A DNA stretch of 64,000 bases from Chloroflexota bacterium (GCA_964291655.2 OZ219801.1:480001-544000); one strand, 5' to 3'; shown: positions 16,968 through 21,828, counted from the stretch's first letter. Program-made: numbers and translations. The notes: generated from the sequence alone by a model not told the origin.

Positions 16968-18149
16968 CTATTTATGCGTAGCCTCTATACAAGAATCCTC
17001 TGTGCGTTCGATGGAAAAGCTCAGACCATTCAAGCCCCCAGTTGATAGTCCCGCTGCTCGAGAATTCTCTTCCCAACTAATAACCTCAGCCGCGAAGCCA
17101 AGGGTCTGCAACACCCGCAGGATCCGTTTAATAGTGATATAAGGAGCACCAGACCCAATGTAATTGCGCTCTAGTAGGCTAAACTGCTCGGTGAGGGAGT
17201 TGTGCAATCGAAGACATTCATACTCGTCTTGACATAGCAATACCACGACACAGTCGGTGATTGCGAATGGCGGCCCTAGTGGAACATAGGCTATTTTGTC
17301 CTGTCGCGGTTTGCCAACTCTATGAATCAGGACTGCAGGACCAGTAATCGAGCGGGTTCCAAAGGGGACTTGCCTTTCCGACTCTCGCAACCGGTAATCC
17401 TGTAGCTCGGTTGAGTGTACCAGCGGTATGCTCTCTCCCGTCTCAACACTTGGTAGGTTATGAGTTTGAAGTGTTCCGCGTAGCAACCCAATTGTAGGCC
17501 CGGTCACAGTAAGGAAAGGCTCAATCTGAGTCTTGTTGTTCTGGGTTGTAGGGCCGCGTTTTAGATACGCGATAGTTACCTTTAGGCTTACTCCAGGAAA
17601 CTTTGCTGTCTCTTCTAGGACTGCCCGGAACTCTCCGATCTGATTTAGTGCAATTCTAGCATCTTGGTCCCGTTCAGCATGAGATGCCCCTGCAGGCAAG
17701 AGAGTCACAAGACTTCCGTCTGGACTGAGGTACTGCGACGCGATCAGAACGAAAGCCATCGCCGGACTGCAACGCATTCTTAGCCCATTTAGAAGAACCT
17801 CCACTCTCGTCCCGCCACGAGCCGAAAATGGGGGATTCAAGACTGCCAGGTCGACTTTAGCCTTGATTTTCTCGAGATTGGAGAGAGAGTGCCTACTAGA
17901 GTTTTCCAAGAAGTTGCACTGAGCCAAAGTCCAATCGGTTCTGACCTGCGCGAGACTTGCAACTCTATTTCTGCTGATATCACATCCAAAAAATGTTGCA
18001 TTGGGCCACCGTTGCTTGGCGGCAGCCAAGAGTTCACCAGTACCTACAGCGAAGTCCGCGATTGTTCTCGGTTCGCCTTGGCACAGCTGATCCGCAACCT
18101 CAACTAACTTTGCCGCAAGGTGAGGGGGAGTATTGAATTCATCAATCAA
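16968..18149 (-). CDS. N6-adenine DNA methyltransferase (gamma-class order) with C-terminal TRD-like region
   Basis: FNTPPHLA (motif X), IADFAVGTGELL (motif I), LNPPF (motif IV). TTG at 18149 lies 1 nt after the upstream stop; the ORF is open to 18200. Confidence 0.85.
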   Translation of the reverse strand: MIDEFNTPPHLAAKLVEVADQLCQGEPRTIADFAVGTGELLAAAKQRWPNATFFGCDISRNRVASLAQVRTDWTLAQCNFLENSSRHSLSNLEKIKAKVDLAVLNPPFSARGGTRVEVLLNGLRMRCSPAMAFVLIASQYLSPDGSLVTLLPAGASHAERDQDARIALNQIGEFRAVLEETAKFPGVSLKVTIAYLKRGPTTQNNKTQIEPFLTVTGPTIGLLRGTLQTHNLPSVETGESIPLVHSTELQDYRLRESERQVPFGTRSITGPAVLIHRVGKPRQDKIAYVPLGPPFAITDCVVVLLCQDEYECLRLHNSLTEQFSLLERNYIGSGAPYITIKRILRVLQTLGFAAEVISWEENSRAAGLSTGGLNGLSFSIERTEDSCIEATHK

Positions 18150-18150
18150 C

Positions 18151-19086: not shown

Positions 19087-20971
19087 AGTAGCCCTCGAAC
19101 ATCTGAAGCTGCTCAGGAAGTTCCTCCTCGATTGAGCGACCAGTGTTTGCCAGAATGTGCCTGATAGTGGAGCGAGGACGATCTACTAAGCCTTCTAAGA
19201 CTTCAATTTCGAGTTGCATCTTCCTCTTTCGACGGTGGCTGTATACGAAGAACGGCGCAAAGACAGGGTGTAACCAGTAGTCAAATTCCTGAGTCGCGGC
19301 CTGCTCAATCAACTTTGTGCCGGACTTCCTTACGAGTGCTACGTGCATTACGGCACTGCTGAGTAGCCCACTTTGCCGACAGGTGTAGCTAATTGAACTA
19401 GGTTTCAGGTAGAATTGATTGACTTCTGGCGTGTGACCTTCAGGGGTGGATGCCATTACGCTAAAGACACGACCCAGACCAAGCACCAGCTTGGTTAGTT
19501 GTGCTCCATACGTGGAAACACCTTCAAGTTCTTTGAGAGCACGGGTGCCCACGGCTTGCGCAGCTTCAGTTTGTGAGTCTGCAGGGACTGTCTTGAGTTC
19601 CTGACCTCGTTGATCGGGATTATGTTTTAGACTTTCATAGACAAGCTCTAACGCGTATCGAATGTTGCTATTTGAAATAAGAAGAAATGTATCCCAACCA
19701 CAATATTGCTTTCTGATGCCGCGCCTCCCTCTGCGTATCGTGTACAGCAGGGAGTGCTTGTAGTTTTGGTACCTCGTGTGCCACTTGGTAGGGTTAACTC
19801 TAAGCTCGCTCAATTCGGAACCCAGCGTAGTTCCTTGTGCCTTTGACCAGAAGAGAAGAAAATAGGCCTGAAGACTTGGCAGTTGATCTAGTTCTTGGAG
19901 TTGTTGCTCTGTTAAGACAGTTTCGCGTTTCAATGCCCGTATCTCGGATTCAACGCCAAGATGGCAGGCTTCGTCTTCTTCAGACATTCCGGGCAATAAG
20001 TCGACTACCTTGATGGGTTCCGTTCCAAGTCGCTTTGCTAAGAGATCGAGCCTACCTTGACAAGCCTTAGTGGCAAAAGACCTAAAGTAATCTCCTTCAA
20101 GTGGATCCTCAATCTCAATGAGTTCGTAATCTGCCGGATACATGAGTTGTTCGTCCGCATTCAAGGTCGTCTTAACTTTCCACCCCAGTTGCCTTACTCC
20201 TACCTTGAATGTGTAGGCGTCTCCGGCGTGCTTTATCAGCGTATTCACTACACGCTGTTGATATTCAAGATAGTTCTCATACTCGTCGATGAGAAGAAAG
20301 AAGACCTTACCATTGAAGTCCGGAAGCCCTCTAACGGCCCCAATCAATTGCTCAATTGGTGCTCCGAGCATGGAAAGTCCACGTGGAACTTCATCAGCCA
20401 CATTGTTGATGGCAGCTTCAAAATCCACAAGCGTCATGCGGACCAATTGAGCTAGCCTTCGAATGCTGCGCACTGACTCGCCAATTCTCAAACTTCGAGC
20501 CACCAATTCAAGTTCTTCTTTTGAAATTCCTACTACTGTACCAGTTTCATTCTCAAACCACTCTAGAAAGTCCATCAAGCTCAAAGTGATAGTCAAATTC
20601 AGATAATGACCAAACAGCCGTGACCACCGGTCTTCCGTCAATTCGTCCCCGCTAAAGGCGGTTACGCGATTGGTGTCGACACGATGATACAGCCCGAAGA
20701 ATGGCCAATTCCTAGGATCCGCAGACTGCCTCAGCGCCGATTGACCCGCATATGATAGACCCTTCAAGGCGGTGGTCTTTCCCGTTCCCCGTCCACCCAA
20801 TAGAAAGCAAGGCCTGTTGGTCTGTAACGCCGGAAAGTACCTTGGTTCCGCGAACAACTCGTACAGTTCCTCCCCAAGCCATTCGGCCCGAGTTGAGCCA
20901 AAAAGCTGGTACAGAAGGGTGTGGAGGCTTACTTCTTCCTGATGAGCGGATTCCATCCCATCCCTTCCCAT
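19073..20971 (-). CDS. P-loop AAA+/STAND-like (ORC/CDC6-like) ATPase
   Basis: Walker A GGRGTGKT, Walker B FLLIDEYEN after a long helical insert. C-terminal YWLHPVFAPFF. Overlaps both neighbours. Start at 20971 or 20956. Confidence 0.8.
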   Translation of the reverse strand: MGRDGMESAHQEEVSLHTLLYQLFGSTRAEWLGEELYELFAEPRYFPALQTNRPCFLLGGRGTGKTTALKGLSYAGQSALRQSADPRNWPFFGLYHRVDTNRVTAFSGDELTEDRWSRLFGHYLNLTITLSLMDFLEWFENETGTVVGISKEELELVARSLRIGESVRSIRRLAQLVRMTLVDFEAAINNVADEVPRGLSMLGAPIEQLIGAVRGLPDFNGKVFFLLIDEYENYLEYQQRVVNTLIKHAGDAYTFKVGVRQLGWKVKTTLNADEQLMYPADYELIEIEDPLEGDYFRSFATKACQGRLDLLAKRLGTEPIKVVDLLPGMSEEDEACHLGVESEIRALKRETVLTEQQLQELDQLPSLQAYFLLFWSKAQGTTLGSELSELRVNPTKWHTRYQNYKHSLLYTIRRGRRGIRKQYCGWDTFLLISNSNIRYALELVYESLKHNPDQRGQELKTVPADSQTEAAQAVGTRALKELEGVSTYGAQLTKLVLGLGRVFSVMASTPEGHTPEVNQFYLKPSSISYTCRQSGLLSSAVMHVALVRKSGTKLIEQAATQEFDYWLHPVFAPFFVYSHRRKRKMQLEIEVLEGLVDRPRSTIRHILANTGRSIEEELPEQLQMFEGYYASI

Positions 20972-21828
20972 CGAAATAGCGGTAGCGTCGCGTCAGGAAC
21001 AGATCCATGCATCGCTATAGCCAAGCCCAACCTATGAAATCCCTGCCAGTCATCTACTGACTTGCCATCGGTGTCGGGGATACCGGCCCTCGCCGAAGCC
21101 CTTCTTACGACTTCTAGGTACTCTTCCCCTCTACCTGCTGGCCACAGAATTGAATTCTCTTCCACAGCTGAGTACTCACGTGAGATGAGCTGTCCAGGCG
21201 ACAGATTCAATCCCTTGCACTCTCTTATGATTGCTTCGCGGCCATATTCAGTTGAGAAAGCTGGCGCGTAGAAAATAGGGACCCCACTTTCCGTCAAGTT
21301 CTGAAGGCCTAAATCTTCCCACATAGTTATCATTTGCTGACCAGTTCCAACAAAGTCATCTACGAGGACAAGTGGGCAACCCCTTGTCGATGCAGTGTCT
21401 GCTGCTTCCTTGGCTGCAAGAAGCTGATTTTCATCCAAACCAAGAATTTGACGTGCTTTTCGAACAAACACTCGGCCACTGTCAGCAATGCTGTCTGTCT
21501 CTCCCTGAATCGGTGCAACCAACGCTGAAGAGAGGAACTCTTTCCAATCCAGGGTGAGTTGTACTGGGTTGCGAGGATCGAGCATTGACATGCTAATGCG
21601 CTGAAAACCAGCTAGGAAAGCAGCATCAAGTAACTCCTCTCCAAAGTACATGAACTGATCCAAGAGGTGAACTGCAACTTCCCGTTCGCGCTCATCAAAA
21701 TTCGACAACCACCTGTCTGGACTTAACTCGCTTTTGAGCGGCCAAAGGCGAACATTCACCAAGAATTCTGCCTTTGCCTTGACCCATTCCGACGACCGGG
21801 CTATAGGAGCTATAGGGGTCAAATCCAT
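20929..21828 (-). CDS. Type I phosphoribosyltransferase-fold protein (conflict-system-like)
   Basis: PRPP-loop LVLVDDFVGTGQQM. N-terminal WLSNF, internal DSG, C-terminal HGSVPDATLPLF. Confidence 0.8.
   Translation of the reverse strand: MDLTPIAPIARSSEWVKAKAEFLVNVRLWPLKSELSPDRWLSNFDEREREVAVHLLDQFMYFGEELLDAAFLAGFQRISMSMLDPRNPVQLTLDWKEFLSSALVAPIQGETDSIADSGRVFVRKARQILGLDENQLLAAKEAADTASTRGCPLVLVDDFVGTGQQMITMWEDLGLQNLTESGVPIFYAPAFSTEYGREAIIRECKGLNLSPGQLISREYSAVEENSILWPAGRGEEYLEVVRRASARAGIPDTDGKSVDDWQGFHRLGLAIAMHGSVPDATLPLFRWEGMGWNPLIRKK

Follow-up and report, generated by a model that had tools for sequence, protein, structure and literature searches.

Activation of the phosphoribosyltransferase (PRTase)-like effector of Retron-Eco11 lowers phosphoribosyl pyrophosphate (PRPP) by about half and results in abortive infection (PMC12746101), and ShosT has been described as a toxin of the PRTase type by which purine metabolism is disrupted in defence against phages (PMC11961720). 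PRTase-CE is also the Pfam name given for type III-A retrons in a further source (PMC13712802). Here, we describe a cassette of four genes encoding a PRTase-CE protein, an ORC/CDC6-like AAA+ ATPase, a CARF6-family protein and a DNA adenine methylase, which is located at positions 16968-21828 of a 64,000-nucleotide (nt) stretch of DNA from a Chloroflexota bacterium (GCA_964291655.2 OZ219801.1:480001-544000; hereafter, the window). The core of this cassette has already been predicted in the form of the Pfam families PF24389, PF24390 and PF24391 and of the CARF6 models of PADLOC, and the cassette is a real, intact member of that group. An initial interpretation made from the DNA alone (hereafter, the sequence-only reading) had regarded the core as possibly predicted but uncharacterised. 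This agrees with our results, as models exist in both collections, while neither a describing paper nor a solved structure detectable by sequence was found; the literature search, which covered the texts of accessible articles, returned no published description or test of the core.

The four co-oriented open reading frames (ORFs) are situated on the minus strand and form one operon. The PRTase gene (20929-21828; 299 amino acids (aa), the predicted effector) overlaps the ATPase gene (19073-20971; 632 aa, the predicted switch) by 43 nt (20929-20971), and the latter overlaps the CARF6 gene (18151-19086; 311 aa, the predicted sensor) by 14 nt (19073-19086). At the third junction, the TAA stop codon of the CARF6 gene (18153-18151) is followed by a single g (18150) and then by the TTG codon (18149-18147) from which the methylase gene (16968-18149) is read into a protein of 393 aa. 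This start agrees with the database gene call P0121 and with the N-termini of homologues; an alternative start at 18200 would give 410 aa (ORF 16968-18200) and a 50-nt overlap with the CARF6 gene. The arrangement is just as the sequence-only reading had laid it out, and the motifs that it quoted (VDDFVGTG, GGRGTGKT, IDEYEN, DFAVGTG and NPPF) were all found in the ORF translations. Its domain calls (PRTase, ORC/CDC6-like AAA+ ATPase, CARF-like protein and DNA adenine methylase) were right for all four proteins, in which, as had also been stated, Pfam searches detected no nuclease, reverse transcriptase (RT), cyclase or HsdS domain. Nothing specific was added by an NCBIfam search, and searching PDB by sequence retrieved no solved relative of any of the four, the best match being EcoR124 HsdM with an E value of 0.02. 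A scan for promoters and terminators yielded fewer sites than were present in shuffled sequence.

The PRTase gene is present as a single copy in the genome. Its product matched Pfam PF24390 over residues 38-297 (1.2e-43, 150.2 bits against a cut-off of 27) and, at 8.4e-14, the PADLOC PRTase_III-A models, which represent PRTases of type III-A retrons. Residues V156, D157, D158, F159, G161 and G163 of the PRPP loop were conserved in at least 90% of 55 homologues. Residues 23-587 of the ATPase aligned to positions 2-571 of the 571 positions of Pfam PF24389 (2.1e-132, 443.2 bits), and both its Walker A (G59-T66) and Walker B (D229/E230) motifs were conserved in at least 90% of 63 full-length homologues. 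The Pfam nSTAND5 family scored only 0.14, and an ESM Atlas search performed with the C-terminus of the ATPase returned its own family only.

No Pfam family was assigned to the CARF6 protein, which matched the PADLOC model PDLC01913 ('CARF6--CARF_CARF_CARF') along profile positions 3-302 of 305 (5.5e-94, 312.8 bits). An AlphaFold2 model was obtained from an alignment of 39 homologues (predicted local distance difference test score (pLDDT) 83; predicted template-modelling score (pTM) 0.86) and compared by VIA-align with 48,161 PDB representatives. The top matches were the CARF domains of Csm6 (Z 11.6), Can2 (Z 10.3 and 10.0), Card1 (Z 9.4) and Cam1 (Z 9.2), all of which align to residues of about 165-295. 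Can1, a nuclease with two CARF domains, aligned over 215 residues with a span of 25-289 (Z 9.2), and SAVED proteins covered most of the chain (Z 6.5-7.0). According to these matches, the C-terminal half is a CARF domain, and the N-terminal half is Rossmann-like and placed where a second CARF domain would be expected; the chain leaves no room for an effector domain. The designation 'tandem CARF' given in the sequence-only reading is firm only for the C-terminal half (Z 9.2-11.6). The N-terminal half is a candidate second CARF domain, spanned by the alignment to Can1, and it has no detectable profile similarity to the other half. CARF6 relatives are numerous: 742 were retrieved at E <= 0.001 in a 90%-clustered collection, none of them informatively named, and 985, 666 and 266 representative clusters were counted among 1.84 billion proteins at E <= 1e-3, 1e-10 and 1e-30, respectively. 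In the 97.6%-complete genome, the Cas10 models TIGR02578 and TIGR02577 gave 0 matches and no SMODS cyclase was detected. Since both are absent, the ligand of CARF6 is here not a messenger of type III CRISPR or CBASS, and CARF6 does not serve either of these systems in this genome.

With regard to the fourth protein, only weak Pfam matches (MTS and N6_Mtase) were obtained, together with a match to PADLOC MTase_II at 9e-16. D32, G36 and G38 of its DFAVGxG motif, as well as the NPPF motif, were invariant in 35 homologues, across which the C-terminal domain was also unusually well conserved. The AlphaFold2 model (pLDDT 88) had M.TaqI as its best full-length fold match (TM score 0.56-0.58), followed by CamA and M.BseCI. 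Judging by motifs and fold, the protein is an N6-adenine DNA methylase of the gamma class that consists of two domains, the C-terminal one being a TaqI-like target-recognition domain.

The clustering of the four genes is not due to chance, because all four are kept together in other genomes and in metagenomes. In a scan that included one genome per species, four other Chloroflexota/Dehalococcoidia genomes proved to have the same genes, with protein identities of 65-95%; the cassette is at the L21-L27-tRNA-Ala site in two of them and elsewhere in the chromosome in the other two (loci L013 and L014). A metagenome scan provided 80 further loci, whose CARF6 proteins are 38-53% identical. Wherever there was room for the whole cassette (at least 3 kb upstream and at least 1.3 kb downstream), all four genes were present on one strand (38/38 loci), the methylase gene being directly downstream of CARF6 in 32 loci and upstream of the PRTase gene in the other 6. 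Taken gene by gene, and again where room was available, the ATPase was found in 75/75, the PRTase in 50/50 and the methylase in 71/73 metagenome loci; both loci in which the latter was missed, L057 and L077, have little flank. The sequence-only reading had named co-occurrence of homologues as a point to check, and they do share a neighbourhood, with the methylase included. From this co-occurrence we therefore conclude that the methylase is an integral fourth gene and not a chance neighbour.

The distribution of the cassette is patchy within the genus, where a full-length ATPase was found in 4 of 17 genomes, three of PRTase type and one of TIR type. Plasmid records with the ATPase numbered 153, of which 134 are conjugative and 129 are from Klebsiella, and two contigs labelled Acinetobacter phage carry it as well. 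In Klebsiella, the gene order is methylase, PRTase-CE, ATPase and CARF6, as exemplified by an IncR plasmid of Klebsiella pneumoniae (L143). The cassette is both self-contained and mobile. Its neighbours in individual loci include DruA, a type I restriction-modification system and a NACHT protein. In the Moraxella, Klebsiella and Acinetobacter records its genes are named only 'hypothetical' or 'uncharacterised', with the exception of the methylase, which is annotated as a tRNA methylase in the Klebsiella plasmid records.

In some cassettes, the PRTase gene is immediately preceded by a fifth gene, coding for an all-alpha NTP pyrophosphatase-like protein of the dUTPase_2 family (PF08761) of about 210-220 aa. 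It was detected in 7/80 metagenome loci (L063, L065, L066, L081, L092, L094 and L095) and also in the Moraxella and Acinetobacter records (L142, 3362-4027; L144, 3377-4015). Its presence as a fifth conserved gene in the window was rejected, given that a tblastn search against the window produced no match better than E 1.7.

Distant variants were collected from genomes with a PF24389 match at E <= 1e-20, to which two distant loci of the species scan and the same-genus genome G015 were added, and their neighbourhoods were annotated with Pfam and with hidden Markov models (HMMs) built for this analysis. PF24389-positive genomes amounted to 14/401 in the Bacteroidota sample, 5/401 in that of Chloroflexota and 9/401 in that of the phylum of G042. 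Among the variants, 26 loci were assessable; the broken L167 was left out, and L016, whose ATPase is interrupted by stop codons, was included. A CARF6-family protein followed the ATPase or was fused to its C-terminus in 26/26. The effector position, by contrast with this constant partner, was occupied by PRTase-CE in seven variants, HD-CE (PF24391) in six, a calcineurin-like phosphoesterase in three (two of them typed by custom HMM only), a TIR domain fused to the N-terminus of the ATPase in three (including G015), a protein kinase fused in the same manner in five and an N-terminal extension of no assigned type in one; in the remaining variant it was cut by the contig end. These are mostly enzymes that act on nucleotides or cofactors, and the wider family use of the variants takes in the sister Pfam families HD-CE and wHTH-Calcineurin_assc. 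In an alignment of 17 CARF6 proteins covering all effector types, R37 and Y123 were invariant, and there was almost no variation at Y129, at G175 or at the GTK-motif lysine. Because HD, calcineurin-like, TIR and kinase modules fill its slot while the CARF6 motifs persist, the PRTase looks like a swappable effector. One of the variants, L140, consists of a single kinase-ATPase-CARF6 protein of 1218 aa (PADLOC 'CARF6--CARF_STK_AAA', 1602.9 bits), the domains of which follow one another as the PRTase, ATPase and CARF6 genes do in the window.

A DNA methylase gene was adjacent in 24/26 variants, and the enzymes encoded belong to at least five unrelated classes, comprising gamma N6-adenine, PF01555 N6/N4, longer PF01555/D12-like, C5-cytosine (PF00145), Dam-like (PF02086) and HsdM-like methylases; PRTase-type systems alone were paired with four of these classes. 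The property common to the partner enzymes thus appears to be DNA methylation and not membership of one protein family. We also considered that the methylase might modify a small-molecule signal, a possibility that was rejected because DNA methylases of the C5-cytosine, N6/N4 and Dam classes replace each other among the variants. Taken together, the constant core of the class is the ORC/CDC6-like ATPase plus CARF6, the effector is exchangeable and a DNA methylase is almost always present.

Several individual variants deserve separate mention. In G015, which belongs to the same genus, a TIR-ATPase fusion (745 aa), CARF6 and a PF01555/D12-like methylase are encoded at another chromosomal site (L108, 7636-12100). 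The C5-cytosine methylases of two HD- or TIR-type variants (L164, 4473-6269; L166, 5191-6972) carry an N-terminal extension of about 228 aa, which in L164 matches the HhH-GPD base-excision glycosylase superfamily (2.7e-07). In L139, a homologue of DruA, known from Druantia (PF14236, 4e-66), is encoded at 5148-6269 directly upstream of the kinase-ATPase and CARF6 genes, and no methylase was detected there. Finally, the ATPase gene of L016 (7923-9882; G041, Bacteroidota) contains one TGA and two TAA stop codons, the methylase, PRTase and CARF6 ORFs being open, and just upstream of that locus there is a type I restriction-modification (R-M) HsdR gene.

In the window, the cassette forms part of a tRNA-associated island. 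The segment that carries it (17000-22500) has a GC content of 0.48-0.51, compared to 0.56-0.62 in the flanks, so the difference in base composition mentioned in the sequence-only reading is real. So is the neighbouring tRNA: a tRNA-Ala(CGC) on the plus strand (16849-16922; predicted by ARAGORN and identical in seven sister loci) lies 46 nt from the methylase stop codon and represents the insertion site and the left edge of the island. A degenerate second copy of tRNA-Ala(CGC), also on the plus strand (25810-25883), was recognised by tRNA prediction and comparison as the likely right edge. Its 3' 50 nt are identical to those of the first copy and 7 positions of the D-arm differ; it is probably a non-functional repeat at which an insertion of 8.9 kb (16923-25809) ends. 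The backbone shared by sister genomes consists of the conserved ribosomal protein genes L21 and L27, which the cassette adjoins, tRNA-Ala and then a variable stretch. In the sister genome G001, a gene matching window positions 26077-28635 comes directly after the tRNA and the low-GC insertion is absent, which confirms the island context. No integrase was found among the ORFs of the 8.9-kb island.

Two further ORFs were noted within the insertion. One of them (23070-25481) encodes a protein of 803 aa in which about ten leucine-rich repeats (LRR) are followed by a glucose/sorbosone dehydrogenase (GSDH) beta-propeller domain, and which is 89% identical in sister locus L012. The other, located upstream of the PRTase gene (22036-22560, minus strand), encodes 174 aa with no Pfam family; only fragments of it are kept in the sister loci L003/L011 and L012, and it may be a gene remnant.

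To account for these results, we propose a mechanism to which we assign an even chance of being right, namely that CARF6 as sensor, the ATPase and a PRTase that drains PRPP or nucleotides constitute a split STAND-like switch, gated by a self-marking DNA methylase. The methylase would mark the host's own DNA, and the ATPase and CARF6 would reproduce, in separate proteins, the STAND order of N-terminal effector, NTPase and C-terminal sensor, an arrangement suggested by the fusions, the colinearity and the swapping of effectors. The switch would fire on unmethylated invading DNA and/or on a nucleotide ligand bound by CARF6; the fired ATPase would then activate the PRTase, which would consume PRPP or disturb nucleotide pools, and either phage or plasmid replication would stop or the cell would abort infection. 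By analogy, depletion of PRPP or nucleotides would be the best-supported action of the PRTase, because the Retron-Eco11 effector lowers PRPP and ShosT affects purine metabolism. Self-marking, as in R-M, BREX or MADS, would be the simplest role for the methylase, and the presence of such an enzyme in 24 of the variants strengthens this suggestion; since these enzymes are exchangeable whatever their chemistry, it is presumably the methylated DNA that matters. The likely function of the cassette is anti-phage or anti-plasmid defence, or maintenance of the element that carries it.

A number of observations weigh against this proposal. Whereas gene content, folds, conservation, modularity, fusions and mobility are shown by our results, we infer the defence role from context alone, and PRPP depletion, self-marking and the order of events are likewise inferred. 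That context is not uniform: when 134 of 163 candidate flanking ORFs from 36 metagenome loci were scanned, the flanks proved heterogeneous, with HipA, ResIII, TIR/SEFIR, Schlafen-AlbA and integrase appearing twice each and dUTPase_2 three times, and many of the 134 ORFs were ordinary metabolic genes. Enrichment in defence islands, which the sequence-only reading had named as a point to check, can hence not be claimed for the related loci. The retron effector that provides the link to PRPP depletion is only distantly related to the cassette PRTase (PADLOC PRTase_III-A, 8.4e-14). There is no obvious reader of unmethylated DNA among the components, nor an enzyme that would make a CARF ligand, and if the ATPase reads DNA directly, CARF6 is left with no explained role. 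No adjacent methylase was detected in 2/26 variants (L132 and L139). As for the CARF6 fold, a Foldseek search of the model against PDB returned only KaiC and KCC with a TM score of about 0.2, and comparison of the N- and C-terminal halves by hhalign gave a probability of about 1%, with no internal repeat. In addition, so large a proportion of conjugative plasmids is as compatible with an addiction module as it is with defence.

Thymidylate synthase genes were also seen among the 134 flanking ORFs (Thy1 twice and ThyA once, within loci L017-L082), which may be a chance observation.

A bolder version, which we consider unlikely, would be a new form of epigenetic immunity in which a methylase of any class defines self and perhaps also senses unmethylated DNA, the read-out being made through CARF6 and the ORC-like ATPase in place of a nuclease. 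Here, CARF6 may contact the methylase or have as its ligand a methylation by-product that contains adenosine, and the effectors may deplete PRPP, nicotinamide adenine dinucleotide (NAD) or nucleotides, or phosphorylate targets, such that the system would resemble R-M with nucleotide starvation as its 'restriction'.

Three other explanations appear improbable to us, to a similar degree. Firstly, the methylase could itself be the sensor or a bait: its turnover on unmethylated DNA would be perceived by CARF6 and the ATPase, either by contact or by way of a by-product that contains adenosine, for example S-adenosylhomocysteine (SAH), or else the enzyme would be guarded against anti-restriction proteins of phages. 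What the five or more unrelated and interchangeable methylase classes have in common, S-adenosylmethionine-dependent action on DNA, would suit this explanation, as would the TaqI-like target-recognition domain, the one part of the cassette identified as reading DNA in a sequence-specific manner, and the 1-nt distance between the CARF6 stop and the methylase start in the window's clade. However, the position of the methylase gene is not fixed, as it may be at either end of the operon, and a diffusible SAH signal would be expected to be swamped by housekeeping methylation.

Secondly, and with an equally low probability in our view, the cassette could serve the maintenance of mobile elements as an addiction module, with the methylase as antidote and the ATPase-controlled effector as poison, so that loss of the element kills the cell. 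The 153 plasmid records with the ATPase, so many of which are conjugative (134) and from Klebsiella (129), and the location of the cassette in a tRNA island are consistent with this role. Moreover, only two of the 26 variants have no methylase, as would be expected if the other genes were harmful without it. Nevertheless, many copies are chromosomal with no plasmid genes nearby, and addiction is not exclusive of defence, since classical R-M systems serve both purposes.

Thirdly, the PRTase could build an unusual nucleotide from PRPP, CARF6 could bind this messenger and the ATPase could start or execute the response, a relay close to the one envisaged in the sequence-only reading and, in our estimation, unlikely to be correct. 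In its favour, binding of nucleotide messengers is a property of CARF domains, all top fold matches of CARF6 are CARF proteins that bind cyclic oligoadenylate (cOA), and a genome devoid of Cas10 and SMODS cyclases implies that any ligand must come from the cassette or the invader. TIR domains can also make signalling nucleotides, and one of them replaces the PRTase in three variants. By contrast, the HD, calcineurin-like and kinase modules found in the PRTase slot would not make a common ligand, even though the core CARF6 motifs persist alongside them; the TIR and kinase domains are fused where STAND-type proteins carry their effectors; and no protein would be left over as the final effector. 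Production by the PRTase of a nucleotide bound by the CARF protein is, therefore, disfavoured. Overall, the sequence-only reading holds with respect to its domain calls, the uncharacterised core and the tRNA context, but its relay from PRTase to CARF is not favoured.

Lastly, a housekeeping function, with the ATPase in replication control and the PRTase in nucleotide salvage, is very improbable despite the adjoining L21 and L27 genes and the housekeeping relatives of PRTases and ORC-like ATPases, considering that 13 of the 17 genomes of the genus have no full-length ATPase, that the cassette is a low-GC insertion found elsewhere in the chromosome in L013 and L014 and also borne on plasmids, and that TIR, kinase or HD modules may take the place of its PRTase.

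If the split-switch mechanism gated by methylation is true, the cassette would belong to an untested branch of bacterial immunity that joins self-marking by DNA methylation with CARF-controlled depletion of nucleotides or cofactors, and CARF proteins that operate independently of CRISPR and of cyclases would thereby gain a function. Rare as it is, the class is widespread, as judged from the 985 CARF6 clusters and from the presence of the ATPase in 1-3.5% of the genomes in three phylum samples. Given that many conjugative Klebsiella plasmids carry the ATPase, it may influence how susceptible clinically relevant bacteria are to phages and how plasmids move among them. Furthermore, the homologues on Klebsiella and Moraxella plasmids have culturable hosts, which makes the class directly testable in E. 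coli.

Compared to the described systems, the cassette shares with type III-A retrons such as Retron-Eco11 the broad PRTase family. In those retrons, according to the published description (PMC12746101), the effector has a C-terminal winged helix-turn-helix (wHTH) domain, whereas the PRTase in the window has only 299 aa, and control is here exerted by an AAA+ ATPase, CARF6 and a methylase. No RT domain was detected by Pfam in the four ORFs, so the cassette is not a retron; no search for msr/msd non-coding RNA was made. ShosTA (PMC11961720 and PMC12961424) likewise has a toxin with a PRTase domain, but the clade and the control mode of the cassette PRTase differ, and none of the four proteins has a DprA domain according to Pfam. 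The dUTPase_2-type gene of some cassette relatives is reminiscent of the paired PRTase and pyrophosphatase activities of ShosT. A classical type II R-M system is not supported, as no known nuclease family was found in the four proteins with Pfam, PADLOC or NCBIfam; a nuclease of novel fold is conceivable within the ATPase.

BREX, DISARM and MADS similarly keep a methylase together with a large ATPase and non-nuclease partners, but in the cassette these partners are the CARF6 protein and a metabolic effector. None of the proteins that define BREX, DISARM or MADS was seen; for MADS, PADLOC returned only mad2 (2.3e-12, the methylase) and mad8 (2.6e-4, P-loop), both matches due to shared domains, and no other mad model. 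The CARF fold is held in common with the ancillary CARF effectors of type III CRISPR systems, especially Can1, although CARF6 has no fused nuclease or other effector and resides in a genome without Cas10. With the STAND NTPases (Avs/NLR-like), the cassette would share the logic of an N-terminal effector, a central NTPase and a C-terminal sensor, which becomes literal in the TIR-ATPase and kinase-ATPase-CARF6 fusions; in contrast to them, its NTPase is an ORC/CDC6-like AAA+ protein, effector, NTPase and sensor are encoded by three separate genes, and a methylase accompanies them. The closest correspondence is with the predicted neighbourhoods of ORC/CDC6-like ATPase, CARF6 and '-CE' proteins: these are known as profile models only, the CARF6 models deriving from the CARF classification, and three of the four proteins encoded in the window match them in full length and far above the cut-offs.

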